From IMG/VR virus record IMGVR_UViG_3300037882_004081, positions 1-64,000 of that record: a stretch of DNA of 64,000 nucleotides. The stretch is one strand, 5' to 3'. The notes beneath the pieces were generated by a model that was not told where the DNA came from, ran no database searches, and saw only the letters and a program-made list of their open reading frames with translations. This DNA is from a virus. The position numbers were made by a program, and so were the translations under genes. Shown in pieces: positions 1-63,870 of the stretch; the first letter of the stretch is position 1; every line of letters starts with the position of its first letter.

Positions 1-442
1 CGGCGGGCGCGGGCTGTTCTGGTGCCGGGGCTGGTGCCGGGGCTGGTGCCGGGGCTTGAGCCGTCTCAGACGGATCATAGTCAACTGGCTCGTCCAAACT
101 CCACAGGATCTTGGTAGCCGAGAAGACTTCCTCCGGTACATCCTCGTTGTATCCGATGGTGGCTTCGGGTGCGACCAGCGCCAGACGTACTGGGAGTGGC
201 TTCTGCAACCCACCGAGCGTCGCCACACGGTCTTCTCCTTCTTCTTCGGGTGAGTCGGACATGTGTCTGTCTTGGTAGTTGGTGATGATGTCTCCATCCC
301 CGATACCGAACTGAGACAAAATCTGCTGGTCTAGAAATCTTCCTGTGGGGATTAGGTCGGACTCAACAACGCGAGTTCGGGTCCGGGGAGCGTGGGTTGC
401 TTTCCCATTCAAAAGATCGTTGACCAAATCAGCTGTTTTCAT
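1..442 (-). CDS. Hypothetical protein with Pro/Ala repeat, runs off the window edge (partial)
   Basis: Translated by hand from ATG at 442: MKTADLVNDLLNGK...RVVESDL...QAPAPAPAPAPEQPAPA; no stop before position 1. Confidence 0.75.
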   Translation of the reverse strand, partial: MKTADLVNDLLNGKATHAPRTRTRVVESDLIPTGRFLDQQILSQFGIGDGDIITNYQDRHMSDSPEEEGEDRVATLGGLQKPLPVRLALVAPEATIGYNEDVPEEVFSATKILWSLDEPVDYDPSETAQAPAPAPAPAPAPEQPAPA

Positions 443-466
443 CGTGGATATTTACGCAGAAAGCGG

Positions 467-1228
467 TTAGTCGTAGCGTGGGATGAGTCTTGGTCTCCGG
501 TTCCTCATTTCTTCCGAGACCGTCTTGAGGAGTTCTTCACCTTGCTTGATCAGGTCACCACTGTTGAGCGTGAGAGTAGTGCCACCGGGACCGGGAAGCT
601 GTCCCGAGAACTTGTTGCGGTTGTTGCCCAGTGTAATCATGGCTTTCGCCTTGCACAACTGTGCGAACATGTGGCGGTGGATTTGACGAACTTCATGCAC
701 CCCGGATCGGGCAAGGCTAGTGAACGCGCACGCCGGGTAGCTGACCGGATTATGAATGTGGAGGGTGCTGGTGGATTCTTCCAGGTACCACTGTGGGAGG
801 CGACTAGTCACACGCTGGAACCCGTGGGTCCATTGGAGTGCAAGTTCGATCTCACTGCTGGGTGTTCCACCCGATCCGGAACCACCGCCCGTCATACCAG
901 CCAGATTGGGAACCACGACGCCGAGAAGCTGCGCCATGTAATTGCTGGTGACCCCGTAAATGTTGTGAGGTTGGATAAAGTCCACTCGCCACACTCCCAT
1001 GAAGCCATCAAGGTCCGCAAACGAGTAGGTGGGTGATCCCGCTGGGATCTGCACAGGCCAATTCCTGGGGAACACCTCCGAGTATTTCCAGATGGCTGCT
1101 GATATGGAGTTGTCGAGTGTTTGTGGGTACGCTGGATCTTGGGCTTCGGTGCGCCAGATCAGTCCCGCGAGTTCGCTCTTAAGCCACTCCCGTAGCTGCT
1201 CAATCGTGTAAGTGGGTGGAAGAATCAC
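467..1228 (-). CDS. Neck protein, T4 gp13-like head-tail adaptor
   Basis: C-terminal LGNNRNKFSGQLPGPGGTTLTLNSGDLIKQG resembles the gp13 'KFxGxxLPGGxxLNG' motif. Confidence 0.7.
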   Translation of the reverse strand: MILPPTYTIEQLREWLKSELAGLIWRTEAQDPAYPQTLDNSISAAIWKYSEVFPRNWPVQIPAGSPTYSFADLDGFMGVWRVDFIQPHNIYGVTSNYMAQLLGVVVPNLAGMTGGGSGSGGTPSSEIELALQWTHGFQRVTSRLPQWYLEESTSTLHIHNPVSYPACAFTSLARSGVHEVRQIHRHMFAQLCKAKAMITLGNNRNKFSGQLPGPGGTTLTLNSGDLIKQGEELLKTVSEEMRNRRPRLIPRYD

Positions 1229-1259
1229 CAGTAAACCTAGGCATGGACCTTCGTTTGGT

Positions 1260-1580
1260 TCACCACCGCTGTCCTAGAAACTCGGCGATGGATCGGGCGA
1301 CCTCAAGATCGTCCTCGTCCTGAAAGGCAATGAGTTCCTTGGACTCCCAGTCCCGACCTGCCTTCGTCTTGTATGGGATGCCTCTGGTGGTTCGCCCCTT
1401 GGATGCTATCCCACTGATGCCGCCCCCGCCCCCGCTTCCAACAACTCGCGAGGGAGGCGGTGGATCAACGACCGGTGGGTCTACTGGTGGCTCAACGATC
1501 GGTACGGCAAACCGGGTAATACCCGCCAGTACGACCGAACCCAAATACGCCCCTCTACCGAGACCACGAAGGACGATCAT
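1260..1580 (-). CDS. Hypothetical Pro/Gly-rich protein, possibly virion-associated
   Basis: ATGA overlap with upstream gene; lies in a structural cluster. Confidence 0.6.
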   Translation of the reverse strand: MIVLRGLGRGAYLGSVVLAGITRFAVPIVEPPVDPPVVDPPPPSRVVGSGGGGGISGIASKGRTTRGIPYKTKAGRDWESKELIAFQDEDDLEVARSIAEFLGQRW

Positions 1581-2146
1581 TGGAACCGATCCCTCCGGTC
1601 AGAGCCCCTCGCCCGGTAAGGCTGTGTACCAGCGACATCTTCGAAAATCGGTGCCACGTAGAGCGGGGTTACATCGTCGTCCGCATAGAGTGTTGCCTGC
1701 CCGGTGTTTGGATCGGACACCATTTTGTTGCGGAGAAGCCTCATGATCGTCATGACCTCATTGGTCAGGTCTGGACCCGCCCCAGTAGAGACCGCAATGA
1801 GACCAGCCGAATTGCCAATGATGAGGGATACTTGATTGGCAACCTTTACATCGGCCAAGTTGTGGTTGGCTCCAACGCACACGACCGTGTATTGACCGTC
1901 TTCAAATTCTACCGTGTACCCGTTGATGATTTCAACGGCTCGTGCGTACGTGACGCCAGACAGGGTAAGCTCAGTATTGTGTCGGTGGGTGTCCAAGAAC
2001 ACGATACCCTCAGTTCCGTCTTCAATACCCTTCAGGGATAGGCGCAACCAGTTAACATCCAGTTCGTACGAAGAACCAGAGAGGTAAGTCAGGTCCGTTT
2101 TGGGGACCAGTATGACCTTGTTAGTCCAGTTGATCGAAATAGCCAT
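1577..2146 (-). CDS. Putative virion structural protein
   Basis: Beta-rich composition; start re-assigned to MAISINW directly after the upstream stop. Confidence 0.65.
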   Translation of the reverse strand: MAISINWTNKVILVPKTDLTYLSGSSYELDVNWLRLSLKGIEDGTEGIVFLDTHRHNTELTLSGVTYARAVEIINGYTVEFEDGQYTVVCVGANHNLADVKVANQVSLIIGNSAGLIAVSTGAGPDLTNEVMTIMRLLRNKMVSDPNTGQATLYADDDVTPLYVAPIFEDVAGTQPYRARGSDRRDRFQ

Positions 2147-2147
2147 A

Positions 2148-3563
2148 TCATAAGTCCGCAATCTGAGAAACTGGAATGCTGATTCCGGAAGTAGTCAGAT
2201 TGAATTCCACTTCGTAAGATTTGTAGAACGGGGCGGATGATGCCTTCCTGACCCTTAGTCTGAGATTTAGCGGGACATCGTCCAGGTCGTACACAAACGA
2301 ACCTGTACCATCTGCGGTGAGGCCCGTCGCGACAAGTGAATCGTCACTCACGCGTTCAATACGCCACCTGCTCCCCACCACCATCCCGGAAATATTGATC
2401 GTTGGGATCTGGATGGGTTCCAGATCGAACGTCATAGCAAATTCAAAACTGGACCACCCGCTGCACCCCACCGCCGCAGTAGCCCCGGCAGCAGTTTCAG
2501 CAGCACTGACCAGTGCTATCCCCTCTCCCTCTCGCAGTACGATCCCGGCTTTTCTGGCTAGCATGTCAGTCATCTGCTGACCGACACCGAACACATCCGG
2601 CATGAAGGTCGGACGATTCCGCACCATTTCTGGGAACATGGTGCGATACACCGGACCAAGAAAGTCCTTCGTCTTCAGATAGTTGAACCCCTTTGGGGAT
2701 CCACCAGATGCATCGGAGAAGGCGTTTTCCGGCATCGCGTATGGGAACATTGGGCAGTCCGCCTGAATATCCACGAACGTTGCGGGATCAGCATAATCGG
2801 TATCCATTCTGACTGCTGTCAACCTCTGTGAGACAGTGGCATCAATCAGACCACCGCTAGGGACCAATTGAAGGTACGGGGAATCGTATGTGCCAACCTC
2901 TTCCACCGCCACATCCAGGAGCCTCACCGTCTCGCCGGAACCAGCAGCGTTGTCGATCGCAAAGATAGCGACATCTTGGACGATCGCACTCGTGAAAAAA
3001 GTGGTCGTCCACACCCGGTTCGGGGTGCCAACCCGAATGAGGGTTGCTGTTACCCTCAGCGGCACAGAGTTGTTGAACGTGGAGGCATAAATCGCGACCC
3101 CCTCACCCGCTCGTATCACCACACTTTCTACAATTGAGTCCTTCCTTGGTTTAGCGTAAGCGTTACCGAACCTCCGGGGAGTTTGGCGACCCATCCACGA
3201 TAGGGACGCTTGGTTCATCTGCTTAAGAATGGCAATCCTGCGAATGAACGTTGGAGATGCCACCGCCGCCTGTTTCACCACTGATACTGTGGTCGGCCAT
3301 GAACTCGCGTCGGTGTCCATGGGGTCCAGCGATAATGGATCGCCACCACTTACCGTTGCTCTCCCGAGCGTGAGGTAAGTGGCAGAAGCAGCGCTTACCG
3401 TACCGGCGGTGGCAGTGGAGGTAGAGGTAAGCGAGTTCACCTCCAGTGAACGAATCGTCACCTTCTTGCCACTGGAATTCTTATTAACCAGCGCAAGGAG
3501 TGCGTTCCCGGAGTTGCTTTGCCATGACAACTCCCCGCTGACCCGGTATTGCTGGCGAGCCAT
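2148..3563 (-). CDS. Putative virion appendage protein with two copies of a beta-sandwich-like domain
   Basis: Internal repeats VVIRAGEGVAI / IVLREGEGIAL; paralogous to 3567-4094. Confidence 0.65.
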   Translation of the reverse strand: MARQQYRVSGELSWQSNSGNALLALVNKNSSGKKVTIRSLEVNSLTSTSTATAGTVSAASATYLTLGRATVSGGDPLSLDPMDTDASSWPTTVSVVKQAAVASPTFIRRIAILKQMNQASLSWMGRQTPRRFGNAYAKPRKDSIVESVVIRAGEGVAIYASTFNNSVPLRVTATLIRVGTPNRVWTTTFFTSAIVQDVAIFAIDNAAGSGETVRLLDVAVEEVGTYDSPYLQLVPSGGLIDATVSQRLTAVRMDTDYADPATFVDIQADCPMFPYAMPENAFSDASGGSPKGFNYLKTKDFLGPVYRTMFPEMVRNRPTFMPDVFGVGQQMTDMLARKAGIVLREGEGIALVSAAETAAGATAAVGCSGWSSFEFAMTFDLEPIQIPTINISGMVVGSRWRIERVSDDSLVATGLTADGTGSFVYDLDDVPLNLRLRVRKASSAPFYKSYEVEFNLTTSGISIPVSQIADL

Positions 3564-3566
3564 CGA

Positions 3567-4094
3567 TTAAGTGTTGGCGAGAGTATATTCGATAAAAACA
3601 TCGACCACACCCACGGCGGACGAGCCAGAATGGCGAATGTCCACTCCCTGACCTTCCCGCAAGACCAAAGGCTCGATATCGGTGTCCCCGGTAGCAGCGT
3701 CCCACACACAATTTAGTGGAACCAAACATTCGAACTCGTCACTGGTTCCCGCAGAGGCAGCTGGTTCGTCGTTCGACCATACCCAGTTCCTCAAAGCATC
3801 AGTGGCGGCGGATGTCACCGTAGCACCGTGTGCCACCAGAACCTGTGCCGGGGCTGTTTCGGAAGCAGTGTCATGTTTGACCGGGGTAATGCTCGTGCCC
3901 GCTGACTGGGCGGTGCTGCGGCGCATGCTGAACGTTGTGAGCACGCCGGTGACGCCAGCGGTCTGGTTGTTGAGAATCCAGACGCGCTTGACTCGAATGA
4001 TACGTCCGGAACTAGCACCATTGAAGATGCCAGCCATTGACTTGTTGTTTCCGAAGGCAACCCCGAGGAAAGAGGCAGTGTATGTTTGGGCCAT
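3567..4094 (-). CDS. Putative virion appendage protein, single-domain paralog of 2148-3563
   Basis: IFNGASSGRIIRV...LVLREGQGV motifs shared with 2148-3563; Ala/Thr/Ser-rich. Confidence 0.65.
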   Translation of the reverse strand: MAQTYTASFLGVAFGNNKSMAGIFNGASSGRIIRVKRVWILNNQTAGVTGVLTTFSMRRSTAQSAGTSITPVKHDTASETAPAQVLVAHGATVTSAATDALRNWVWSNDEPAASAGTSDEFECLVPLNCVWDAATGDTDIEPLVLREGQGVDIRHSGSSAVGVVDVFIEYTLANT

Positions 4095-4113
4095 AAGGGT
4101 GAATCAGTGTAGG

Positions 4114-5763
4114 TTATGCGTCCGAGGTGCGGACCGCCGTGGCAGAACCCCCGGCGCTCCCAAGAGTACCAGGAGACTCGAAGGTTTTAATGGGAGTGAC
4201 GCCACCATCCCGGACCCGGATGAACAAGGAACGATCGCCCGAATAAACCGCCGTAAACGACTCAGAAGTCGATGTGGCCAGTTTATCGATGTACGAAATG
4301 AACACGTTTGCTCCATTGGCGGCGTTGTTCCCAGAAAAATTGTGGGAAGCGATCGTAAACGTGGAACCACTCCAAGCGCTGTACACATGTCGGGAATAAG
4401 CCCCGTTCGTCCTTAGGATTCGAATGGTGCCGGTACTCGGGGTATCCAGCGGGATGGAGCCCACGACCACCACGGAGGTGACTGCAGCGCCCGTCAACGC
4501 CCCGTCGAGGGTCATTTGATCGGTGTCGAGCAGACCACCATCCTCTGGACCAATCAGCACGTAGTCTTCACCACTCACGATACCACCGAGTGTAAAGGTA
4601 ACGTAGTTCGGTGCCTGATAAAGCGTGTTGGTGAGGTCGAACACCTTGTCGACCGACGACAGATCGGTCGCTTCCACGCCGAAACCATAGGCACCAACGA
4701 GGGAGGTGCCAGTGGAGGCTCCGCAGCATGGGGTTGAGACTGTCCTCTCGGTTACCGTCACGTTGACCTGACAAGTCGCCGTGGACGCGCCCGTAATTAA
4801 TTGGTTGTCGGTCGGTGCTACCCCGGTCAAGAGCTGAATCCACATCTTCGTGGCAGCGGTGGGGCTGTTGATGGCCAACAGTTGACCTGTACCGCCGCTC
4901 CACGACACCGCTTCGAAGGCAGAGAACGTGCCAGTTGGGCTGTCCACCGTGATTTCGTGAGTGATGCCCCTGAATAGCTGCCCAGCCAACCCAAAAAGGG
5001 TGGTGGTCTCACCGCGCCTCGTCAGGTACTTCAACCGCTCGTAGAACTGGTTTATGGTCGCAGTTCCACGGTTCCATTCGGAGTAGAAGAACTCGTCCGC
5101 CCCGTTGTTGTTGACGTCAATCCCGTTGTACCCGGCTGAAGTCAAGGAAACTGTGGTGAATGGGGAAGACGTAAGTGAACCAATAATGGTTTGGTTGTTC
5201 AGGTCGTCGGCCCAACCGGTGAACGCCATAACGTTGACGCCTCGCGCCGTACCGTTGATTTTGAACTCCAGGAACGCCTTTCCCCACTCCCGCGTTGTAC
5301 CAAGCAAGCGGCGACCGTCAATGTCGGCCCCACCCGTCCTGACCTTGGTCATGAACTGGTGGCTAATACCATTCGGTGCATCCGCGTTGAGACCAGTGGT
5401 CCAAAAATTGGGGGTGATCAGAGCACCATTTTGGATAATCTCTAGGCGCATCCCGGACGGTGCGAGGACCTGAATACCGTCGTAGATCACGTTGCCGGAG
5501 TCCTGAATGATCGATCCACCGTACAGGTGTTGTGCGGCGGTGTCATCAATGTTGAAACCGTTGATCAGGTTAATGATGGTGTCGAAGCTCTTGTCGGATG
5601 GCGTTTCCTTATCGATCGCCATCATGTCGTCACCACTGGATGACGGGTCATCCGCCAAGTCCTGCAGCCACCGGTGAAGTTCCAACACGGTATAGTTGGT
5701 GGTCGTCCCCGTGTACCGGATATCCTTGTCGGCTTGGATTTCGAAGTCCGTTGAAATTGGCAT
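4114..5763 (-). CDS. Putative virion structural protein, 549 aa
   Basis: Thr/Gly/Ser-rich beta-structured protein heading a structural operon. Confidence 0.7.
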   Translation of the reverse strand: MPISTDFEIQADKDIRYTGTTTNYTVLELHRWLQDLADDPSSSGDDMMAIDKETPSDKSFDTIINLINGFNIDDTAAQHLYGGSIIQDSGNVIYDGIQVLAPSGMRLEIIQNGALITPNFWTTGLNADAPNGISHQFMTKVRTGGADIDGRRLLGTTREWGKAFLEFKINGTARGVNVMAFTGWADDLNNQTIIGSLTSSPFTTVSLTSAGYNGIDVNNNGADEFFYSEWNRGTATINQFYERLKYLTRRGETTTLFGLAGQLFRGITHEITVDSPTGTFSAFEAVSWSGGTGQLLAINSPTAATKMWIQLLTGVAPTDNQLITGASTATCQVNVTVTERTVSTPCCGASTGTSLVGAYGFGVEATDLSSVDKVFDLTNTLYQAPNYVTFTLGGIVSGEDYVLIGPEDGGLLDTDQMTLDGALTGAAVTSVVVVGSIPLDTPSTGTIRILRTNGAYSRHVYSAWSGSTFTIASHNFSGNNAANGANVFISYIDKLATSTSESFTAVYSGDRSLFIRVRDGGVTPIKTFESPGTLGSAGGSATAVRTSDA

Positions 5764-5819
5764 GGTGAGATGAGATTCTTGTTTCTACTGTTGAGGCTGC
5801 TGTCTGCGATACTTACCAA

Positions 5820-6368
5820 CTACTTCCACTCCAGTGCGGAGGCGAGTATCTCAGTGGTGTGTCCGTATTCGTCTTTGGTAATTTCGAAACTCCACTTTGT
5901 GATGATCATGGTGGGTTCAACCGAAGCTTCCAAGAGGACCGGAGGTACCTTGATAGCCGCTGGTGCGGGTGCTGTCTTTGGTTTGCTCTTCGTCTTAGCC
6001 CTGGTGATCTTCTTGGCGACTTTGGAACCAGCAGCGGCTTCCCAGAATGTAGCGCCCCTCTTGGAAGCTGGCGATTTCTTGGCGGGTGCCTTTGCCGCGA
6101 CAGAGGCTGGGGGTGCGGTCGCTGATGGCGCTGGGGGAACCACCAGCGCTTGTTTTTTACCACCAGCCACCATTTCCCAAAACCCCCCACGCACAGAAGA
6201 GCGTGATGGACTCTGGCGGACAGGCGACTCCGTCACTTGCGGAGGTGGCGGAGGCGGTGGCGGGGGGGGTGGCGGTGGCGGTGGCGGAGTACGTGTGACA
6301 GGACCTCTTCTACCCCCAGCCGCGATATCCCAAAAACCGCTATCCGTGCGACTTTTGGGATCCCTCAT
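5820..6368 (-). CDS. Low-complexity protein with a poly-Pro run and three FW(D/E)xxAG repeats
   Basis: GFWDIAAGG, GFWEMVAGG, TFWEAAAGS; about 15 consecutive Pro; Lys/Ala-rich linkers. Confidence 0.65.
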   Translation of the reverse strand: MRDPKSRTDSGFWDIAAGGRRGPVTRTPPPPPPPPPPPPPPPPQVTESPVRQSPSRSSVRGGFWEMVAGGKKQALVVPPAPSATAPPASVAAKAPAKKSPASKRGATFWEAAAGSKVAKKITRAKTKSKPKTAPAPAAIKVPPVLLEASVEPTMIITKWSFEITKDEYGHTTEILASALEWK

Positions 6369-6391
6369 GATTACAGCCTTTGGTAAGTTGT

Positions 6392-7117
6392 TTAAGCACT
6401 TTGTTTTACACCGTTGTGGTACGCACTGATCGCGGACTTCAGCGTCTTACGGACCTGCCCGTACCGGTGAGTAGAACACCAGTACCACGTTTGGCCTTTG
6501 ATTTTGGATTTGCGGACCGCTGGAGTCGCCTCTCCGTTTTTCCCGTGGTGCCAAGTTGCCCCAGCCTTCATAACCTCCCGACGCTCTTCGTCGGTGAGCT
6601 TCACCGTGTGGTCCTTGAGGGTGCTGATTTCCGGTGACTCGGTTAACCCGTCGTGCCGGTAGTCACCAACCAGCACCCAGCTATCCGGATCGCCGTACAG
6701 GCGCTTGATTTCCTCCGCGTCATCTTTTAGGTGAAGCGTGGTGGCGTCGCGGGTGCCGTCCACGTGTTTGGCCCAGTAGTCCACCAGCCACTCGCCGATC
6801 ACCGAGAAATCATGGCCACCCGAAAAAGCGCCAATTCTCTCATCGCGGGGGTTATCGACCGCATATCCGAATACCGCCCCATTGTGTTTGGAAGCGAGGA
6901 TGCGGGCGGAGTTGGTACACTGAGTGCAAGAAATCCTGTGCCACTCTTCTGGCCTGTACTGCTTGACTTTGTCATTCGCCAGTACCTTGGGATCGTGGTG
7001 ATCCCAATATGAAAAGCCCTCGTCGTCATCGTACCGCTCCAGTGGAAGCAACGCATCGGCTTCCGCCTCCAGTTCGTCTCGTGTGATGGCTTCGGTGATG
7101 TACTGAGCAAGTGGCAC
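6392..7117 (-). CDS. Hypothetical protein with possible Cys-His-Asp (transglutaminase/papain-like) domain
   Basis: QCTNSA...GGHDF...WLVDYW triad-like order; second small domain after GLTES. Confidence 0.5.
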   Translation of the reverse strand: MPLAQYITEAITRDELEAEADALLPLERYDDDEGFSYWDHHDPKVLANDKVKQYRPEEWHRISCTQCTNSARILASKHNGAVFGYAVDNPRDERIGAFSGGHDFSVIGEWLVDYWAKHVDGTRDATTLHLKDDAEEIKRLYGDPDSWVLVGDYRHDGLTESPEISTLKDHTVKLTDEERREVMKAGATWHHGKNGEATPAVRKSKIKGQTWYWCSTHRYGQVRKTLKSAISAYHNGVKQSA

Positions 7118-7125
7118 AGCGAAAC

Positions 7126-7653
7126 CTACAGATTGACGTAGTCTTCCTTCTGTTTCGACAGGACATTACCAACCGCATGGACGGGTGCACCGATGATAAA
7201 GACGGTAGTGCTGACCACGACCGCAACTGGACCAACCACTGGCCAATGCCCCATCCCACCACCGATGATAGCACTGGTGTTTCCAATGTTCCTACCAACC
7301 CTTTGGCCAACATTCCTGTCTTGGCTTGCGCACGAACACATCGCCAGTAGGCACGATATGACCGGCATGCATCCGGCCATCTCCTTGATCCGTGCCGAGA
7401 ATGTCGGGCTGACGGAAACACAATGGCGTCTATCCCATTCTTCCCTGCCGATCGACTCCAGGTAAGCCTTACCACGTTGCCCATGAGATTCCTTGCACTC
7501 ACCCGACACCCTACCGGAGCCGTCTCTTGCCACCGTCCTGCACCGATATCCACGTTTCGACTTGCACACCGGGCAGTCGACGGACTGGACGGCGGCGGTA
7601 AGAGCCCATCCGGAAATTGGCTCAAGCGGGATGGGGACTCCGTGGCGTTTCAT
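7126..7653 (-). CDS. Zinc-finger protein with in-frame lipoprotein/glycine-zipper-like C-terminal half
   Basis: CPVCxxxxGxxC...H motif, then VISCLLAMCSC and a Gly-rich hydrophobic stretch. Confidence 0.5.
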   Translation of the reverse strand: MKRHGVPIPLEPISGWALTAAVQSVDCPVCKSKRGYRCRTVARDGSGRVSGECKESHGQRGKAYLESIGREEWDRRHCVSVSPTFSARIKEMAGCMPVISCLLAMCSCASQDRNVGQRVGRNIGNTSAIIGGGMGHWPVVGPVAVVVSTTVFIIGAPVHAVGNVLSKQKEDYVNL

Positions 7654-10928: not shown

Positions 10929-11159
10929 TCAATGATCTTGCTTATCATCCTGAATAATCGATCCCTCGTACAGAAGAGCTGCTGACGTATCATCAACGCT
11001 GTACCCGTTCAGAGTGATGATTCTGTCAGACGGGGTGCCCATATTGATAACCATGTCTTCCCCAGACTTCGATGCTTCATCAGCAACGTTTTGCAACCAG
11101 CGGAGCATTTCAAAAATAGTGACGCTTTCGCGGTGGGCGTTGATGTCTCCTGGAGTCAT
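10929..11159 (-). CDS. Stand-alone paralog of the N-terminal domain of structural protein 4114-5763
   Basis: TIFEMLRWLQNVAD...TPSD..IITLNGYSVDDTSAALLYEGSIIQD vs TVLELHRWLQDLAD...TPSD..IINLINGFNIDDTAAQHLYGGSIIQD. Confidence 0.75.
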   Translation of the reverse strand: MTPGDINAHRESVTIFEMLRWLQNVADEASKSGEDMVINMGTPSDRIITLNGYSVDDTSAALLYEGSIIQDDKQDH

Positions 11160-22421: not shown

Positions 22422-22805
22422 CTACCCGTTCGCTCCGTGCTCGTCCCGTTCTATCTTCAACTCGTACATCAGAGCGGTGTCTTTGCACATTCGCTTCTGT
22501 GTGTTGTTCTTCCACCCGTTGCTCGGAAGATCTACCCACAGTATCCCAGACTCGATCACGCACCTCACCCATCCCAGTTCCTCCATCACGAAATCGTAGG
22601 GCTCCCCCGTGAACCCTCTGGTTTCTGCGATTTCCTTGGCTGTGGAAACGTGGCTTGGTTCCGATAGCCCCTTAACCAGTATCACTTTGCCATTTGGAAG
22701 AGCCCAGAATCCGTGGAACTCTGGGTACTGTGGAAGCTCATCAAAGCCCAATTCGACCCCGGCACGGATCGACTCCAACAAGCGGTTGATGGCCTCAACT
22801 AGCAT
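22422..22805 (-). CDS. Hypothetical protein, candidate capsid-internal protein
   Basis: N-terminus MLVEAINRLLES; HGFWALPNG...H...GWVR motif. Confidence 0.7.
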   Translation of the reverse strand: MLVEAINRLLESIRAGVELGFDELPQYPEFHGFWALPNGKVILVKGLSEPSHVSTAKEIAETRGFTGEPYDFVMEELGWVRCVIESGILWVDLPSNGWKNNTQKRMCKDTALMYELKIERDEHGANG

Positions 22806-23037
22806 CGCTGGGGAGTGTGGTACCAGCGCGGAAGAACGTCACCTCGCCACGGAGAGCGCGGCTGGTGGCGACCTTGTTGGCAAAGCGCTTGGCAGACGTC
22901 CAGTCCTTGAAGACCGGCTTGGTGAGCTTCCACTTGCCCGTCCAGTTACGGTAGGCAACCTGCACGCCACCACTTGCTTCGCTGTCGAAGTCATCAATCC
23001 TGGCAAGCGTTTCTTCGATCCGTTGGACGAGTTTCAC
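22795..23037 (-). CDS. Small hypothetical protein
   Basis: GTG start overlapping the upstream stop (GTGA): MKLVQRIEETLARID. Confidence 0.6.
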   Translation of the reverse strand: MKLVQRIEETLARIDDFDSEASGGVQVAYRNWTGKWKLTKPVFKDWTSAKRFANKVATSRALRGEVTFFRAGTTLPSDAS

Positions 23038-23369
23038 GTCGATAAATAAGCGATAACGCCAAGGAACGAAATGTGCCACGCTTGGTCCATGCACAGTGGA
23101 CCCATGGGCCACATGTCGGGAGTGGTTTGCCCAAAGAACCCCATCCATCTAATGTGAAGTGCGAACCTGTCTTGCAACCAGTGCTGCACGAGGATCGCGG
23201 CCAGCGCCCACCACGGCAACCCAACCTTCCATACCAGCAACAAGAATGGTAGCGCGTAAACCGCCACGTGGACCGTACAAACGAACGAGCTAGAATTCTT
23301 CCGTTGCATCCAGTGGTTCTGGAGCGGGAAATCACCGAACGCGTGAGCGGCAATCAGATACCCTAGCAT
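23034..23369 (-). CDS. DUF3307-family membrane protein
   Basis: AHAFGDFPLQ..WM..K, HVAVY, HWLQD, DQAWH motifs. Confidence 0.88.
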   Translation of the reverse strand: MLGYLIAAHAFGDFPLQNHWMQRKNSSSFVCTVHVAVYALPFLLLVWKVGLPWWALAAILVQHWLQDRFALHIRWMGFFGQTTPDMWPMGPLCMDQAWHISFLGVIAYLST

Positions 23370-23388
23370 ATGTGCCAGAAAAATACAG

Positions 23389-23418
23389 CGAAGCCGCACC
23401 TTGTAGGGTGCGGCTTCG
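23389..23418 (-). terminator. Intrinsic terminator hairpin
   Basis: 12-bp stem CGAAGCCGCACC/GGTGCGGCTTCG with a T-rich tail on the minus strand. Confidence 0.7.
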
Positions 23419-23494
23419 AGAAACAGTTGGGGTGGTGTTGGTTACTTCATGGCGTAGGTGGGTTGGTGTTGACTGTGGGGAAGTTAAGAAAGCC

Positions 23495-23599
23495 CTACCA
23501 GTCCTCGCCGGTGATTTCGCCGCGAGTTTCCCAAGCTTCGTTCAGAAGCTCGGCGTCTTGCTGCTCGGTCTCAGGCTGTTGGTCGGGTTGCTTGCTCAT
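23495..23599 (-). CDS. 34-aa highly acidic early peptide, leaderless
   Basis: Translated by hand: MSKQPDQQPETEQQDAELLNEAWETRGEITGEDW; lies between its own promoter and a terminator. Confidence 0.65.
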   Translation of the reverse strand: MSKQPDQQPETEQQDAELLNEAWETRGEITGEDW

Positions 23600-23604
23600 G
23601 GTAC

Positions 23605-23633
23605 ATTTTACCACACAAAGTGACACTTGTCAA
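23605..23633 (-). promoter_or_regulatory. Sigma70-type early promoter
   Basis: TTGACA-17 nt (TGTGG)-TAAAAT; -35 box overlaps the toxin stop codon. Confidence 0.88.
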
Positions 23634-23947
23634 GTCCCCCCTCTCTTCCACAGGCTGTCGTACTTCGCGTGGGGTCCGATGAAGAACCACACGTAGTCGT
23701 TCCCATCCTTCTTCGCGACTGCCCGATATTCGAAGTTGATCGAAATGCGCCACATACCGGGGATGTGCTTGAGTTCCCGGAAATCAGTCGATGACGGGTC
23801 CTGTTTCCACTTCGCGTACACCTTCCGCGCCTGAGCCTGCACCCGCTCGGGCAGTTCAGTGAACTGCTTGTCGAATTGGCGCGTCTTGGACTCCAGAAGC
23901 TCCGGCTTCCAGTCAAGTACCCGTATGATGGCGGCGGCGGCGGACAC
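23630..23947 (-). CDS. RelE/ParE-superfamily toxin (putative mRNA interferase) with an N-terminal extension
   Basis: TRQFDKQFTELPERVQAQARKVY..WKQDP..., WRISINFEYRAV, WFFIGPHAKYD. Confidence 0.82.
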   Translation of the reverse strand: MSAAAAIIRVLDWKPELLESKTRQFDKQFTELPERVQAQARKVYAKWKQDPSSTDFRELKHIPGMWRISINFEYRAVAKKDGNDYVWFFIGPHAKYDSLWKRGGT

Positions 23948-24201
23948 TAATGCTGTTGGAATGTTACTGAGTCTCCTTCAGTGCCAAGATCATTTTTCCA
24001 ACCCGGCATAAACTCACCAGCCAGTTTCACCAGTTCGGCTGGATTGTTAGTGAAAAACGTGACGGTCGGGTTGTCGGTGTGGTGCGGGTCCCACTCAAAG
24101 TCGGTCGCCAGACCGAGTTGCTTCGCCTTGACGAACAAGCCTTTGGCAATGTCGTCGGCGGGTTCTCCAAGAGATTCTTGGATTCGTTTGGTCAGGCTCA
24201 T
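23947..24201 (-). CDS. Small hypothetical protein coupled to the toxin gene
   Basis: Start MSLTKRIQES; its TAG stop shares a base with the toxin GTG. Confidence 0.65.
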   Translation of the reverse strand: MSLTKRIQESLGEPADDIAKGLFVKAKQLGLATDFEWDPHHTDNPTVTFFTNNPAELVKLAGEFMPGWKNDLGTEGDSVTFQQH

Positions 24202-24214
24202 GGGGATAGGTAGA

Positions 24215-24340
24215 TTACTGGCAGGCTTCACAGCTTCCGCTTCCGTCGTCCACCGGGCAGGAACGCTCGGGGAGTGGCTCATTGAAGTCGTCGTCGGTGA
24301 TTTCGGCGGTGGGCTCTTGAGTGTTTGGATCAGTCATCAT
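24215..24340 (-). CDS. 41-aa acidic mini-protein resembling an RNR large-subunit C-terminal redox tail
   Basis: MMTDPNTQEPTAEITDDDFNEPLPERSCPVDDGSGSCEACQ; own TAGGT motif upstream; in frame with the NUMOD3 ORF. Confidence 0.55.
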   Translation of the reverse strand: MMTDPNTQEPTAEITDDDFNEPLPERSCPVDDGSGSCEACQ

Positions 24341-24967
24341 GACACCTAGTTCGTGCCCAGCCGCTATCATTCTAAAGGCTTCCCTGGTGGCGTTGTTAGT
24401 GCGCATAACTTTACTCATCTTCTCACGAGACTCTTTGGAATGCACACGCCCTACACCAGCAGCGGCTATCTTCTCCCGGTGCTCCCGTGGCAAAGTACGA
24501 CCGGAGAGCTTAGCGCTGACTTTGACGCTTATTTTCGCTCTGGTTTCTTCTGAACATGGGTGACCCTTAAGCGAATTACCGATTTTCTCGCGTTGTTCCG
24601 GCGACAAAATACGCCCCCTGAAAGCTCGTCCGATCCTATCCCGAGTCTCTTGAGAAGCGGGCGCTCTATTCCTTCGTGCGTCACGCATCTTTGCTCTGGT
24701 TTCTTCGGAAGCAGGCGCTCTATTCCTTTGTGCAGCACTTAATTTCGCCCGAGTTTCTTCGGAGATTGGTGGTCTAGGAATATGCGCCCTAGCCCTTTGT
24801 GCGAGCTTCATTTTTTCGCGGGCTTCCTCAGTATGGGGTTTACGCACCCGAGCTTTCTGTGCTGCACTCATTCTCGCCCGAGTTTCTTCCGTGTGGGGTT
24901 TACGCACCCGAGCTTTTTGTGCTGCACTTAGTTTCTTCCGAGTTTCTTCAGAAATTGGGGGTTTCAC
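24215..24967 (-). CDS. NUMOD3-repeat DNA-binding protein (homing-endonuclease-derived, no nuclease domain)
   Basis: About ten (H/I/A)SEETRxK(L/M/I)S repeats; more AT-rich codons than neighbours. Confidence 0.8.
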   Translation of the reverse strand: MKPPISEETRKKLSAAQKARVRKPHTEETRARMSAAQKARVRKPHTEEAREKMKLAQRARAHIPRPPISEETRAKLSAAQRNRAPASEETRAKMRDARRNRAPASQETRDRIGRAFRGRILSPEQREKIGNSLKGHPCSEETRAKISVKVSAKLSGRTLPREHREKIAAAGVGRVHSKESREKMSKVMRTNNATREAFRMIAAGHELGVMMTDPNTQEPTAEITDDDFNEPLPERSCPVDDGSGSCEACQ

Positions 24968-25578
24968 TTGGCGATGGCTTGGACGATGGCGAGAAGCTCC
25001 TTGGCGGCAAATGGTTCACCGGTCATGAAGATGACTTCGCCCTTCACGATGCGATATTTGGCTCCCGGAGAAACCCTAGCTTCGCGTGGTCTCTCGGCGA
25101 GTTTGGCCCTTTGAGCCGGAAGCGCCAATACGGAAGCAGCACCAAATGCTTGCTTGCACTGCTCGCCAGTCATATCTCTCGCCGACACCAGCAGGGTGTC
25201 AGTGATGCCGTTATTGTCGACCAGAAGCTCCACCTTCCCACCACCGTCGGTGAGTCTGGTTTGCTCGCTGATTGGGAGCCGTGCCAGATACTTGGCAGCT
25301 GGATAGTTGGCGATGACGAGTTCCGGGAGAATCTGGCGGCGTCCGATCTGTTCGAACTTGCTCACGGTCGCTGGGGTCAAAATCGGGTTGTTGGCGTCAT
25401 CAGCGATCGCGGCGACCGTATACCCGAAGTCGTCGATCAGTTTCACGACAATCTCCCCGGCTCTGACCCAGGCTTTGATGCCTTGGGTAAACACTTCCCC
25501 AAGTTCTCTCACCAAGTCTTTGGGACGAATGACGCAATCGTTGTTGTCGAGCGGAAGTAGTGATGTTGGTAGTGACAT
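24964..25578 (-). CDS. Hypothetical phage protein
   Basis: Clean ORF downstream of a promoter; GTGA-coupled to the NUMOD3 gene. Confidence 0.7.
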   Translation of the reverse strand: MSLPTSLLPLDNNDCVIRPKDLVRELGEVFTQGIKAWVRAGEIVVKLIDDFGYTVAAIADDANNPILTPATVSKFEQIGRRQILPELVIANYPAAKYLARLPISEQTRLTDGGGKVELLVDNNGITDTLLVSARDMTGEQCKQAFGAASVLALPAQRAKLAERPREARVSPGAKYRIVKGEVIFMTGEPFAAKELLAIVQAIAK

Positions 25579-25638
25579 ATGGATAGTTGGTTGCGATGAC
25601 AAGAAAAGTGACGCACTATACAGTTGTCACCAGCCTAC

Positions 25639-25667
25639 ACTATACCATAGCTTCTAACTCTTGTCAA
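25639..25667 (-). promoter_or_regulatory. Sigma70-type early promoter
   Basis: TTGACA-17 nt (TATGG)-TATAGT. Confidence 0.85.
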
Positions 25668-25982
25668 TCAAAGGCTCGCATCTGGTGCGTCTGGCAGTAT
25701 GATGCAGTTCTGGATCATACCGGGCATGTCGTCGATCCAGATGTCCACGCGGTGACCGGCTTCCCGGCATGCCTCACCCTTTAACTTCCCCTTGCACCAG
25801 ACGATCGGAATGTCTGGAAGGTTGTGGCGGTCCATGTCCTCGGACCACGCATGGCGACCAGTCGCAACGATGCAACGGTGACCCCGCATGGTTGCCAATG
25901 CGATAAACTGGTGCCAGAAGTCAGGGTCTTCGGTCCAAGTCCTATCAAAGTCGATCGCAAACAGGATTGATTTAGCCATCAA
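25668..25982 (-). CDS. Minimal HAD-superfamily phosphatase
   Basis: AIDFDRT (motif I), VATGR (II), K, IWIDDMP (IV). Confidence 0.85.
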   Translation of the reverse strand: MMAKSILFAIDFDRTWTEDPDFWHQFIALATMRGHRCIVATGRHAWSEDMDRHNLPDIPIVWCKGKLKGEACREAGHRVDIWIDDMPGMIQNCIILPDAPDASL

Positions 25983-25991
25983 GACCAGAAC

Positions 25992-26816
25992 TCATCCGTT
26001 CAGCAACTTAGCGACGATCGCATCGGCGCTCTCAAACTCCAGCGCCTTGATGCGGTGCGACTTGCCATCGTCATCCAGATAGAGCACTGGGTCAATCACG
26101 AACAGGTCGCCCTGCTCATCGACCAACACGTTTTCATCGTGCAGGTCTTCCACCCTCACGCCGGTCTCGGGGTTGAAGTAGTCGAATTCGGTACCCGGCA
26201 TTCTGCGGAATCCCTGCTCCGCCATGTGCCGCTCCACCTCCTGTTGGGTCGCCCCGCGCTGTCCCACCACGTGAGGCTGCGTGAATACTGGTTTCAACAT
26301 CAGCTGGCCGATAAGATTTCCACCGACCACGAACCCGCGCAGCGTGAGGGGCGCTTCCGGAAACTGGTGGTTGTGGAGTGCGACCCGGTAGAAGAACTCC
26401 AGATAGGTGCCGTGGTAGCTGAGGTCGTTGGCTTTCCACCAGACGCCCTTGTCCTCATCGAACCAAATCTGACTCTCAGTCTCTCCAAGCTCCCCCTGTT
26501 CCTTCCACTCCCCAAAGAACCAGTTTGAGTCGTAGATCAGGTTTTCACGCTTGGCCCATGCCGCCAGTTCCTTCTGTTCGGCGGCACGCAATTTGGTGTT
26601 CAGCGCGTTTCGCGCTCCTTGCCGAGCCGACCTTGACGGGATTCGCGTGAACTCCCCGTCCTGATCATTTGGTACTGTGCGATGGCATCGGAGACAGATG
26701 TCCGTCGCGGCTTGAAGCGTCGCTCCGCCAGCCCCACCATACGCCTGTTGCGCACCCGATGGGATTCTGTCAGGAGAGTATCTCGGAAGTTTGGAAATCT
26801 TGTAGGCATGATTCAT
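25992..26816 (-). CDS. Ser/Thr/Tyr kinase of the polyvalent-protein type (Kinase-PolyVal-like)
   Basis: GETESQIW..VWWKAND, LHNHQFPE..LRGF, QPHV, catalytic DLHDENVL and FVIDP; start MNHAYK. Confidence 0.85.
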   Translation of the reverse strand: MNHAYKISKLPRYSPDRIPSGAQQAYGGAGGATLQAATDICLRCHRTVPNDQDGEFTRIPSRSARQGARNALNTKLRAAEQKELAAWAKRENLIYDSNWFFGEWKEQGELGETESQIWFDEDKGVWWKANDLSYHGTYLEFFYRVALHNHQFPEAPLTLRGFVVGGNLIGQLMLKPVFTQPHVVGQRGATQQEVERHMAEQGFRRMPGTEFDYFNPETGVRVEDLHDENVLVDEQGDLFVIDPVLYLDDDGKSHRIKALEFESADAIVAKLLNG

Positions 26817-27430: not shown

Positions 27431-27459
27431 ACTATAACACATCACGACCCACTTGTCAA
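27431..27459 (-). promoter_or_regulatory. Sigma70-type early promoter
   Basis: TTGACA-17 nt (TGTGT)-TATAGT. Confidence 0.9.
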
Positions 27460-29613: not shown

Positions 29614-30150
29614 TTAGGCGGCGGCGGAGATCGGCGACATACCGTCGAACGACGAGAGCAGATAGCGGAGTGCTTCACACTGTTCCGGTGTGACGAGACG
29701 ACTGCCCACCCAAACCCTCACATTACCATCGGGTTCCACACTCCTGGCGAAATTAGAGACGCCGTGCTGTTCGGAGTTTGGTGGCAACGCGGCTTTCCAC
29801 TCCATCGTAATGCTCCGTACCCGTGATGTCAATGCCTGAAGTGCGTGCCGGTTGACTGGAGCACGCATTGGTGGCATCTTGGTTTCGTTCACCTTGTCGG
29901 ACCAAGCCGTATCGACCTTTTTCGTGCGGAGCGTCACACCGACAGCCCCAGAACTTTCATCCTCAACAACGTCTATCACCATGAACGCAACCAGCATGTC
30001 GTTGGTGGTCAACGCCCATCGTGTCGTGCCCGCTTGTTCTTCGCCTGTCCCCAGTGTGGCCAACTGTTCTTTATCATGAACAAGTTGGAAACCAACGCTG
30101 GTGCCGAGTCTCGCAACAGACTCCCGGATTTGCTCAAGTGTGTTTGTCAT
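29614..30150 (-). CDS. Hypothetical protein
   Basis: N-terminus MTNTLEQIRES; preceded by TAGGTTT. Confidence 0.65.
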   Translation of the reverse strand: MTNTLEQIRESVARLGTSVGFQLVHDKEQLATLGTGEEQAGTTRWALTTNDMLVAFMVIDVVEDESSGAVGVTLRTKKVDTAWSDKVNETKMPPMRAPVNRHALQALTSRVRSITMEWKAALPPNSEQHGVSNFARSVEPDGNVRVWVGSRLVTPEQCEALRYLLSSFDGMSPISAAA

Positions 30151-31711: not shown

Positions 31712-31873
31712 TTAACCGTTGAGGACTTGCTTGGCCACAAACCGCTTTTCACCGCTGCTCTCTGTCAGCGCTTTATTGCGCTTATCGGCTTCCTGATTGG
31801 CCTCAACCAATGTGGGTTTCGAGTCAACCACTTCACCAGTTGATTGATCTCTTACAACATATCGTTCACTCAT
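31712..31873 (-). CDS. 53-aa protein ending KQVLNG
   Basis: Translated by hand: MSERYVVRDQSTGEVVDSKPTLVEANQEADKRNKALTESSGEKRFVAKQVLNG; ATGA-coupled. Confidence 0.7.
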   Translation of the reverse strand: MSERYVVRDQSTGEVVDSKPTLVEANQEADKRNKALTESSGEKRFVAKQVLNG

Positions 31874-36903: not shown

Positions 36904-37137
36904 ATGAGCGTCACCAAACAAATCCTCCGAGAACTGGCTGAACCAGCTGGTGACCTCGACCCCGGATACGCGGTGTATCCGAAAGCCAAGACACTGGTGG
37001 GTGCATTTGGGACTCCAGCCGGAACCGTGGTGGAACTGGTTGGCGCAAACGCCTACAATCCAGCGCTCATAATATGCAAATGGCCAAGTGGGCAGGTCAT
37101 GGAATTGGAAGCCCACGAATATGAACCCATCTCATGA
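36904..37137 (+). CDS. Small SH3-like hypothetical protein
   Basis: Preceded by TAGGTTT; N-terminus MSVTKQILRELAE. Confidence 0.7.
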   Translation: MSVTKQILRELAEPAGDLDPGYAVYPKAKTLVGAFGTPAGTVVELVGANAYNPALIICKWPSGQVMELEAHEYEPIS

Positions 37138-37391
37138 GTGTCGAACGCCAACTCAACGAAGTGCTTAGCAACAACCCCGCGCAACACGCAGTCACAGAAC
37201 TGGCGCGGTTGTTTCCTGGTGCCGAGGTTACCCCGGTCGATGAGTGGAAAGTGAGGATCTCCGGACCGACCGTGGGGCCGAAGTTGGCTGACGATAGCGA
37301 GTGGGCTCGTGATGTGGACTTCGACTATGCGGCGGTCGAAGACGTGCAGTGGAGTCCGGACGAGCGGGCCATATACGTGATTCTGTGTTAG
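37134..37391 (+). CDS. Small acidic hypothetical protein
   Basis: ATGA-coupled; N-terminus MSVERQLNE. Confidence 0.7.
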   Translation: MSVERQLNEVLSNNPAQHAVTELARLFPGAEVTPVDEWKVRISGPTVGPKLADDSEWARDVDFDYAAVEDVQWSPDERAIYVILC

Positions 37392-38393: not shown

Positions 38394-39386
38394 ATGGCAA
38401 AGAAGCTTTTCTGCCCCTTTATGGCTACGGCAGCGGACTCACGACGCATCATCTTCGAAAACGACTTGGTAGAGAGCTACGCGCTCATGTACCGTAGGAA
38501 TCGAACGTTTGCTCTTTACCATCGGATCTGCATGGAGATGCAGAACCTGATGGATACGATTATCAGGACCAACAAGTTCCACCTCGCCGCCCCGTTCGCA
38601 GACATCCGGAACCACCTTTATCTGCAGGTTGAACGGTGGATCGACCACTGGCGACCCGGTCAGGGCAAATGCTACAGCTACTTCAGTTCTTGCTGTAAGC
38701 ACGGGTGCACAAGTTACATCCAGAAGGAAAACGCGCTTCGCGCCCGTCTGGCCTTCACGGACCTTCCCGCCGAAACGTTCGATGCCGGGAGCTACGACAC
38801 CAACTTCGACACCGACCTTGGTGACAAAATACGCGAAGACGTGATGACGATTGCGACCCGGTGGCATGAACCAGCGATTGTGGAGGTGCTGCAATTCCTT
38901 GTGGAAGTGGTGATGCAGGGGCGGGCGGTCACGCGGAGACGGCAGGCACTCGCCACCGTCACCAAGAGCTTCGGAATCGCAGACTCAGAAGCCGCATTCC
39001 TGCTCGACTGGGCACAAGCACAAGTCCGCTCCAAATTGCTCGACCACTATGACATCCCGATCGGTGACGAGGAAGCTTGGCGGTGCAGTGAGAAGTACAG
39101 CCACATCCCGGACCTCATGAAGCTGATCGGCGTGGATGCCACCAAGCGCTTGATGGCAGTATACGGGGGCAAAGCGCTCAAGTTGCCTAGCCCGAGCCAA
39201 ATCAGACGGGTGTCTCTGCTCAAGGACGGGTATCAACGCTACTGGAGTTCCCCCGATCCGGAAGTTGCCGACGGGTTATCCAGGTCCTTGCGGGTGGCAA
39301 GGCAACGCCTCGAAACCGACCTCCACGACATGGCGCGTGGGGTCAACAGCGGCATCACGTTCGACAAGCCGCTATTCAACGACTAG
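38394..39386 (+). CDS. Late sigma factor-like protein (T4 gp55-like) fused to a Mor-like domain
   Basis: IDHWRPGQGKCYSYFSSCCKH resembles gp55-type region 2 (F.P.K...FAYFT); C-terminal LIGVDATKRLMAVYGGKALKLPS is Mor/C-like. Confidence 0.65.
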   Translation: MAKKLFCPFMATAADSRRIIFENDLVESYALMYRRNRTFALYHRICMEMQNLMDTIIRTNKFHLAAPFADIRNHLYLQVERWIDHWRPGQGKCYSYFSSCCKHGCTSYIQKENALRARLAFTDLPAETFDAGSYDTNFDTDLGDKIREDVMTIATRWHEPAIVEVLQFLVEVVMQGRAVTRRRQALATVTKSFGIADSEAAFLLDWAQAQVRSKLLDHYDIPIGDEEAWRCSEKYSHIPDLMKLIGVDATKRLMAVYGGKALKLPSPSQIRRVSLLKDGYQRYWSSPDPEVADGLSRSLRVARQRLETDLHDMARGVNSGITFDKPLFND

Positions 39387-40115
39387 CTTGCTATTGATCA
39401 GGTCGGCCAGTCTCCCCGTCCTCAGGGATTCACTGAACCGATGGTGATAGTGATATTCGGCGGTCGTCTGGTATCCATGTTTGGCCAGCACTTGCTGTGC
39501 GATACCCCGGAACTCCAGCGCAACCTCTTTCTCCTTGGCTGTCAGTTTGTATGGGCTGACGTGCGCCTTGACGAGGATGCTTTCGATGTCGTCCTGCGAC
39601 ATTGACGGATCAATACTGCTGGTCAAAGAACCGGTGTTCTTGAAAATCTCGGGCTGGCGTGAGTCGATAGCCTCCACGTACACTGGTGTTCCTTCCAGTC
39701 CGAACGTCTTGATGACCGTGTAGGCCAGATTCTCCGCGTCAACCTTGTTGCTGCGGCACCAGAACGAGATGGCGCTGAACTTCCCTAGGGCAGCGTTGTT
39801 GACGCCCTTCCATAGCCTCCCGCTTCTCGTCAGAATCCGGTTCTCGCCCATCTGCCCACCGAGTTTGGTGGCAACTGCCATGAAGGTGGGGAGGTCGAGT
39901 TTACCCTTGATGCCCACGTCGTATCCGGCCAGTGTTTTCTTGACCTCCGCTTCCGTTTTGGCGGATAGGGAGGCTTTCATGCCGTTGATGATAAACAGGT
40001 GGGTGCGGGAAGAGTACAGGACGGCACTCCCGATCACGGAAAACGTGATGGCGCTTGCGTGGTCGTGCGGCAGCACCAACTCTTTGAGTCTGAAATTGTC
40101 GGGATTGGATTTCAT
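39372..40115 (-). CDS. Hypothetical protein, candidate capsid-internal protein
   Basis: Start MKSNPD; C-terminal FSES-LRTGRLADLINSKLVVE tail. Confidence 0.7.
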   Translation of the reverse strand: MKSNPDNFRLKELVLPHDHASAITFSVIGSAVLYSSRTHLFIINGMKASLSAKTEAEVKKTLAGYDVGIKGKLDLPTFMAVATKLGGQMGENRILTRSGRLWKGVNNAALGKFSAISFWCRSNKVDAENLAYTVIKTFGLEGTPVYVEAIDSRQPEIFKNTGSLTSSIDPSMSQDDIESILVKAHVSPYKLTAKEKEVALEFRGIAQQVLAKHGYQTTAEYHYHHRFSESLRTGRLADLINSKLVVE

Positions 40116-40140
40116 GCTTGATGATAGGTAAGTCGATGGG

Positions 40141-57366: not shown

Positions 57367-57383
57367 TACGATACCTATACAGG

Positions 57384-63853: not shown

Positions 63854-63870
63854 CGTCTATAACTAAGCGG

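Follow-up and report, generated by a model that had tools for sequence, protein, structure and literature searches.

We analyzed a window of 64,000 nucleotides (nt), the first 64 kb of the 102,728-bp viral contig IMGVR_UViG_3300037882_004081 from IMG/VR, with emphasis on the genes between positions 22422 and 26816, all of which lie on the minus strand. Small proteins encoded in this region and elsewhere on the contig constitute a leader family, in which at least six unrelated proteins carry a similar N-terminal peptide beyond what chance would give. Our assessment is that these leaders have nearly an even chance of being capsid-targeting signals like those of the T4 internal proteins, which a prohead protease of the S77 type would cut. 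The contig is classed as linear, and its completeness is 55% by CheckV estimate. Its recognizable gene set, namely a portal, gp6-, gp25- and gp5-like baseplate proteins, UvsX, a gp31-like co-chaperonin (encoded inside the window) and helicases, points to an uncultured phage from a distant branch of the T4 superfamily, with roughly half of the genome on the contig. Unlike T4, it encodes a PolA-type polymerase and an NAD ligase, and it stands far from the Straboviridae. In the GenBank phage collection, neither 20-30 kb of the window at the DNA level nor the window's kinase at the protein level had a match.

The six core leader starts are those of the genes at 24201, 23037, 36904, 37134 and 7117 and at contig position 94535 (genes are named by a coordinate, see Table 1; an arrow marks a proposed cut). 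Their consensus is M-(S/T/K/P)-(L/V)-x-x-(R/Q/Y)-(I/L)-x(1,2)-E, mostly followed by S, T or A, and their length is 9-14 residues; 22805, 30150 and the GNAT fusion at contig 85330 are looser fits. Described simply as a short shared leader ending in (L/I)-x-E, the peptide is found on five to six proteins and loosely on about four more, but not on the kinase. In an all-against-all comparison of N-terminal residues 2-11 of 127 proteins with curated starts, the largest component at a pair score of at least 16 had 9 members and 10 edges (the six core proteins plus weaker ones), and such a component was reached in 0 of 1000 column permutations and 0 of 1000 within-peptide shuffles. The pattern M.[LV]..[RQKY][IL].{1,2}E, defined post hoc, is present at 5 N-termini against 0.10 expected, and the a priori T4-like pattern M-x(5-7)-[LI]-x-E gives 9 matches against 3.6 expected (P 0.013). 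From residue 13 onward the leader proteins are mutually unrelated, with the exception of the 24201 and 36904 proteins, which are alike over their first ~31 residues (blastp E 0.002), and synonymous codon positions differ among the members. The complete control phage G001 (198 kb) also shows some excess of similar N-termini, but this comes from paralogues and common domain starts, which is why the unrelated bodies in the cluster described here matter. Most leader-bearing proteins have no match in PHROG and Pfam. A scan of viral contigs for the 7117 protein gave no match, and protein atlas look-ups with this protein and with the kinase partner gave no usable lead.

The starts at 23037 and 24201 were fixed independently of the peptide: each comes after the stop of a supported upstream gene (for 23037, the DUF3307 gene) and exactly 4 nt past a TAnnTAT element, a spacing shared with about ten other genes. 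TAnnTAT has only 25 copies on both strands of the 102.7 kb, 19 of which sit 4-10 nt before starts of open reading frames (ORFs). They precede PHROG-supported baseplate and tail genes (79040, 89542 and the gp6-like gene) as well as the 85330 GNAT fusion, the kinase partner (40115), the 442 gene, 24201 and 23037. In the related contig L039, three of three copies precede head-module genes, including that for the prohead protease. From its placement, TAnnTAT(C) looks like the late promoter of this lineage, one that would give near-leaderless mRNAs. A further element, TAGGT (87 copies genome-wide), precedes nine starts by 5-7 nt, those of 7117 and 36904 among them; given its fixed spacing, it could be a translation signal just as well as a promoter. 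Among the leader genes matching the post hoc pattern, 4 of 5 have TAnnTAT 4-8 nt or TAGGT 5-7 nt before the start, compared with 18 of 122 other genes (Fisher P 0.003; P 0.0017 when 94535 and 85330 are added to the leader set). Genes such as 8552, 12941, 17633, 57366, 79040 and 89542 have an upstream element without the peptide, and the peptide therefore does not simply come with that kind of mRNA.

Relatives of the phage were reached via kinase homologues in IMG/VR records, and Peptidase_S77 was found above cut-off in 5 of 5 kinase-bearing records searched. The relative G002 encodes a 672-amino-acid (aa) protease-scaffold fusion, followed by a gp23-type capsid protein, and L039 also encodes an S77 protease. 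Sites of the form [LIV][TS]E[SAT] number 11 (L039) and 5 (G002) in the scaffold parts, versus about 0.45 expected, and the looser motif [LIVF]xE[SATV] numbers 22 and 15 versus about 5. These counts illustrate what genuine enrichment looks like and indicate a T4-like cut preference in this lineage, as far as sequence can tell. The leaders, which mostly end in I/L-x-E followed by S, T or A, match this predicted preference. Additionally, two homologues of the 94535 protein, P0173 and P0174, both begin exactly at the residue after the Glu of LCE↓T, and P0173 cannot be longer, since its DNA, recovered as L039, has an in-frame stop 24 nt upstream. The head module of L039 (Ga0181343_1002173, 1-7493) runs in the order InPase, a 111-aa gene, GNAT-like, ART-PolyVal, the 94535 homologue, S77 protease-scaffold and capsid protein, and two of its proteins have leader-like starts (GNAT-like, MNLLRQLLRE↓S; ART-PolyVal, ...MTSLLATLLTE↓S). 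A side observation is that the "polyvalent protein" domains InPase, ART-PolyVal and GNAT-like are here separate head-module genes, directly upstream of the S77 protease-scaffold fusion and the gp23-type capsid gene. The idea that the portal-adjacent 235-aa protein (94535) is itself a hidden protease found no support in searches.

In T4, the internal proteins IPI, IPII and IPIII, as well as the gp24 propeptide, bear an amphipathic N-terminal leader of ~10 residues ending in (I/L)-x-E on unrelated small proteins, and targeting sequences of this type are N-terminal. The arrangement here is similar in that the lineage has an S77 protease, the genes appear co-regulated with virion genes, and the leader is shared while the bodies are variable. 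It differs in that the leader consensus is unlike that of T4, the cut position ranges from 9 to 19, the protease of the relatives is fused to the scaffold, and the system is known from sequence alone. The T4 internal proteins are themselves diverse, with only the targeting sequence conserved (PMC3012670). By this analogy, small late proteins of diverse kinds would be drawn into the prohead core by the leader, which a gp21-type (S77) prohead protease would then cut off after the Glu, and once trimmed the proteins would exit the capsid together with the DNA. Two such late-type units would lie within 22422-26816, namely 24201 with the translationally coupled ParE-like toxin gene, and 23037 with 22805. 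Many head-internal proteins of phiKZ-like and SPN3US-like giant phages, among them propeptide-bearing ejection and inner-body proteins, are trimmed after Glu by a gp21-related protease (PMC5694885, PMC7411985, PMC10052503). The giant phages cut at (S/A/G)-x-E and remove long propeptides, whereas the present lineage has short leaders and a predicted preference for (L/I)-(T/x)-E. What is particular to the present phage is the combination of a distant lineage, a leader consensus of its own, a tight link to TAnnTATC, and the possible membership of a ParE-like toxin. Should the leader be a capsid-loading signal, it tells which of the phage's many small proteins of unknown function enter the host at infection, and the T4 internal-protein principle would then reach a far-removed branch that has a leader consensus and a late-gene element of its own. 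A short peptide would then predict virion cargo from sequence alone in uncultured phages, with the toxin-type protein as candidate cargo.

Several observations weigh against this capsid-targeting interpretation. When starts are chosen by automatic rules alone, the P value of the cluster rises to about 0.04-0.13, because the 23037 and 24201 starts lie inside longer ORFs. The data set is small, and the pattern was partly defined post hoc; the Glu position varies among the leaders (9, 10, 12, 14, 19), and one member has Leu next. The relative G002 showed no N-terminal cluster in the same test. Neither the Peptidase_S77 nor the Gp23 family was found on the 55% complete contig, nor were genes for a prohead protease, scaffold or capsid, so that the protease is deduced from distant relatives, such as G002 (22-49% identity, 14 genes in common). 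The role of TAnnTAT and TAGGT as late promoters is likewise suggested by gene content. Finally, 24201 and the toxin gene are also downstream of a consensus sigma70 promoter, and their expression may thus not be confined to the late phase. Four near-perfect sigma70 promoters are present (27431, 25639, 23605 and 22389). The original prediction noted that none of the tagged genes starts directly at an early sigma70 promoter. Consensus sigma70 promoters are nevertheless located upstream of both the toxin and the kinase, and no terminator is predicted to intervene. It also noted that several of the genes follow the TAGGT motif; the leader-bearing genes share TAnnTAT or TAGGT elements with tail and baseplate genes.

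The toxin was correctly recognized as RelE-like: residues 35-97 match PF24732 ParE_like (32.6 bits versus a cut-off of 24.4), and PHROG 1213 (RelE-like) matches with E 2e-4. About 14-19 N-terminal residues, including LLE↓S, precede the region matched by the hidden Markov models. It had also been claimed that the toxin fold starts right after the cut, but the PHROG alignment, when extrapolated, starts at about residue 15, before the proposed cut at 19, and an AlphaFold model (two-sequence alignment; predicted local distance difference test score, pLDDT, 48) was too poor to place the fold start. The only retrievable homologue of the toxin, P0026, is 77% identical overall and ~90% identical from LLES onward, while the first 16 residues differ. 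When the N-terminus of P0026 was compared with the 127 N-termini of the phage, the top five were the leader members 7117, 94535, 23037, 36904 and 24201, and the toxin family therefore carries a leader-like extension. Since its homologue is leader-like and LLE↓S is invariant, the toxin may be a member of the leader class. The stop of the 84-aa gene overlaps the GTG start of the toxin gene by 1 nt (TAGTG), and the 84-aa protein matches no antitoxin family in Pfam or PHROG.

As originally defined, the tags were a (L/I/V/F)xE↓(S/A/T/V) motif near either end of many proteins. Every peptide quoted in support of it is present in the sequence, but the motif itself is what chance gives, since its terminal counts are near expectation. 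[LIVF]xE[SATV] has 183 copies in 31,927 residues, and 11.8% of 25-residue windows taken from protein interiors contain it; the terminal 25 residues gave 16-20 N-terminal and 16 C-terminal matches versus 14.3 expected, with P 0.07-0.36 across the three start rules applied. Chance alone is expected to place such a four-residue cleavage motif near the ends of ~12% of proteins, and it should not serve as the sole criterion for cargo. C-terminal 8- and 10-mers showed no clustering beyond one paralogue pair. A common C-terminal "ADxI..KLLNG" tag on the kinase, 39372 and 31712 proteins was considered and rejected, with pair scores within noise (16-20 for the kinase and 31712 tails), and the 31712 protein is conserved whole, tail included, in G002 (41% identity). 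As a separate observation, the strict site [LI]TE[SAT] has 11 copies versus 4.0 expected in the contig proteome; the copies are scattered, occurring in 7117 and 31712 but also in enzymes that are clearly not virion components (NAD ligase, SbcC-like).

The kinase is, as proposed, a protein kinase, of the Kinase-PolyVal family (PF18762, E 2e-29, 102.9 bits versus a cut-off of 27). Relatives at E<=1e-3 number 833, many of them within proteins of 2000-4300 residues. A scan of genome contigs for the kinase homologue P0003 gave no match. Iyer, Burroughs, Anand, de Souza and Aravind (2017; PMC5512222) predict that polyvalent-protein domains, including ART, InPase and the kinase type seen here, are carried in virions. 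The kinase in the window and the ART-PolyVal, InPase and GNAT-like proteins in the L039 head module resemble T4 Alt and the polyvalent proteins in having such enzyme domains, which are predicted (for Alt, known) to travel in the capsid. They differ in being separate small genes instead of one giant protein. Neither a leader nor a late-type element at the spacing typical of the other genes was found for the kinase, and it is therefore not counted as cargo on present evidence. Its proposed C-terminal site, L-E-F-E↓S, fails the motif's own definition because Glu, and not L, I, V or F, stands two residues before the cut. The tail ...LEFESADAIVAKLLNG is not supported as a tag either; 17 aligned homologues are conserved up to GK..R and then have variable tails of 6-25 residues. 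The family of the 39372 protein, the kinase partner, keeps (F/L/T)SE↓(S/N) near its end, but the tail beyond it has 3-17 unconserved residues and is therefore ill-suited as a targeting tail. In all likelihood, the leader class includes neither the kinase nor its partner nor the other C-terminal "tags", their likeness being a chance product of the four-residue motif. Homologues of the 39372 protein are encoded directly upstream of, and overlapping, a Kinase-PolyVal gene in L020 and L022 (8997-10756 in both), which are T4-like IMG/VR phages; in G002 such a homologue lies 9 kb from the kinase gene. Because the homologues adjoin in two other phages, the kinase and its 247-aa partner are probably functionally linked. 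In G001 about 11 kb separate the pair from the head module, and its neighbors are small non-structural genes. The extra C-terminal domain of P0173 was also considered as a counterpart of the 104-aa gene beside the kinase, and this idea was discarded, as the two show no similarity.

Besides capsid targeting, the shared peptide could be real and serve another purpose, such as a first helix for a partner (chaperone, membrane or assembly factor), a degradation or regulatory signal, or a first-codon constraint in mRNAs without Shine-Dalgarno sites. Such sites are nearly absent genome-wide, the first 30 nt of genes are A/C-rich and low in G (0.21 vs 0.29), the amphipathic i, i+4, i+7/8 pattern is typical of many helices, the Glu position is not fixed, and the ~31 residues over which 24201 and 36904 are alike are longer than a 10-residue tag. 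All of these would suit another purpose, which we nevertheless consider rather unlikely. An mRNA-level constraint is at odds with the genes that have the same upstream element without the peptide and with the differing synonymous positions, and the loss of the cluster upon within-peptide shuffling means that residue order matters, not composition. The leaderless homologues of 94535 and the agreement between the leader end and the site preference in the relatives' scaffolds also speak against such purposes. That nothing is shared at all, and that the peptides are chance look-alikes arising from a low-information motif, free start choice and biased N-terminal composition, is a less probable explanation still. 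The motif as first defined is not enriched, C-terminal peptides are unclustered, the cluster weakens with automatic starts, and the larger control phage G001 has its own excess of similar N-termini, all as chance would have it. Against it stand the two nulls rejected with curated starts, starts that are themselves fixed by the constant 4-nt element spacing and upstream stop codons, together with the leader/element association (Fisher P 0.002-0.003), the ranking of five leader members at the top by the P0026 N-terminus, and homologues that start exactly after the leader.

The original prediction in full, by which the toxin, the kinase, a Cys-His-Asp protein and others are tagged at either terminus (C-terminally, e.g., ...E↓SADAIVAKLLNG) for packaging and injection, seems to us very improbable. 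Kinase-PolyVal, ART-PolyVal and InPase do belong to the predicted virion-packaged repertoire (PMC5512222), VFE↓S, VTE↓S or ISE↓S stands 12-15 residues before the C-terminus in several kinase homologues, the partner family has its conserved site near the end, and the partner gene has a TAnnTAT element. The kinase site, however, lacks the hydrophobic residue, the tails past the sites are unconserved over 3-25 residues (and a 3-residue tail cannot target), and C-terminal peptides do not cluster. The kinase is downstream of a consensus sigma70 promoter, the kinase-partner pair is outside the head module in the complete relative G001, and T4-type targeting sequences are N-terminal. The T4 analogy itself is retained for a subset of the N-terminal peptides, given the protease-scaffold fusions rich in (L/I)TE↓(S/A) and the gp23-type capsid in relatives, the shared elements and the leaderless homologues, but not for tags at either end of the toxin and kinase. 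As for the toxin, the 84-aa and ParE-like genes could be an ordinary type II toxin-antitoxin pair acting in the infected cell (addiction, exclusion or counter-defence) and unrelated to the capsid, which is a realistic possibility, if somewhat short of even, and is compatible with any reading of the other leaders. A small gene upstream that overlaps the toxin start by 1 nt is the usual antitoxin-toxin layout, as in ParDE and RelBE modules, the toxin belongs to the ParE_like family, and both genes lie downstream of a sigma70 promoter. Unlike in those modules, the upstream protein has no recognizable antitoxin or DNA-binding domain and bears the leader and a late-type element; both proteins have leader-like starts, in the case of the toxin seen also in its homologue, and the genome is that of a lytic-type phage. 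We regard it as doubtful that the toxin would be loaded into the capsid by a T4-style leader, injected with the DNA as a host shut-off weapon, and checked in the producing cell by the co-translated, leader-tagged 84-aa partner, i.e., that the two would form a packaged toxin-antidote pair.

Table 1. Features of the region 22422-26816 and other genes and elements named in the text (window positions unless stated as contig).
Feature	Position	Strand	Support or remark
Kinase-PolyVal protein kinase, 274 aa from ATG at 26816	25992..26816	-	Pfam PF18762
104-aa PHROG 4256 protein	adjoins kinase gene	-	PHROG match
212-aa protein	between 104-aa gene and NUMOD3 gene	-	downstream of sigma70 promoter 25639..25667
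250-aa NUMOD3-repeat protein	24215..24967	-	80.9 bits
84-aa protein, start MSLTKRIQE↓S, core leader member	23947..24201	-	
ParE/RelE-like toxin, 105 aa, GTG start	23630..23947	-	PF24732, PHROG 1213
34-aa acidic ORF with own promoter, then strong terminator	between toxin and DUF3307 genes	-	
Intrinsic-terminator-like hairpin, 12 bp, 9 GC, T-run	23389..23418	-	closes early unit upstream of DUF3307
DUF3307 membrane protein	23034..23399	-	Pfam/PHROG
80-aa protein, GTG start, MKLVQRIEE↓T, core leader member	22795..23037	-	start overlaps DUF3307 stop (GTGA)
127-aa protein, MLVEAINRLLE↓S, weaker leader-like start	22422..22805	-	next gene downstream of 23037
241-aa protein, GTG start, MPLAQYITE↓A, internal GLTE↓S, leader member	6392..7117	-	TAGGT 6 nt before start
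77-aa protein, MSVTKQILRE, leader member	36904..37137	+	TAGGT 7 nt before start
85-aa protein, MSVERQLNE↓V, leader member	37134..37391	+	second gene of 36904 unit
178-aa protein, MTNTLEQIRE↓S, peripheral member	29614..30150	-	matches a priori T4-like pattern
247-aa kinase-partner protein, no known domain, conserved C-terminal FSE↓S	39372..40115	-	TAnnTAT 8 nt before start
53-aa protein, LTE↓S, ...KQVLNG end	31712..31873	-	
Gene cut by contig end, start MKTADLVNDLLNG...VVE↓S	2..442	-	TAnnTAT 5 nt before start
Portal-adjacent 235-aa protein, start MTLTERIERAILCE↓T	contig 94535 (outside window)		leader member
GNAT fusion	contig 85330		looser leader member; TAnnTAT before start
TACCTAT (TAnnTAT), late-promoter-like	24206..24212	-	4 nt before 24201 ATG
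TATTTAT (TAnnTAT)	23042..23048	-	4 nt before 23037 GTG
Other TAnnTAT(C) copies in window	40124-40130, 448-454, 57371-57377, 63859-63865		
TAGGT sites before starts	window 1233, 7122, 21724, 36892, 37389, 49891, 57371; contig 64328, 64903		
Consensus sigma70 promoter TTGACA-17-TATAGT with TG	27431..27459	-	upstream of kinase-containing unit
Consensus sigma70 promoter	25639..25667	-	upstream of 212-aa, NUMOD3, 84-aa and toxin genes

Other features of the region and the contig were observed in passing. The NUMOD3-repeat protein, in which Pfam and PHROG detected no nuclease domain, consists almost wholly of repeats and may be a free-standing DNA-binding remnant or a regulator derived from a homing endonuclease. 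A -10 box of the TGnTATAAT type is present 5-6 nt before several gene starts (9641, 14526, 22383, 27425, 41355 and contig 81640). The 76-aa ORF at 10929-11159 is a partial duplication, being 52% identical over 64 residues (E 3e-16) to the N-terminal part of a 549-aa protein (4114-5763). Beyond the window, two adjacent 52-aa hydrophobic paralogues (contig 68858-69016 and 69013-69171) share 38% identity and have near-identical C-termini.

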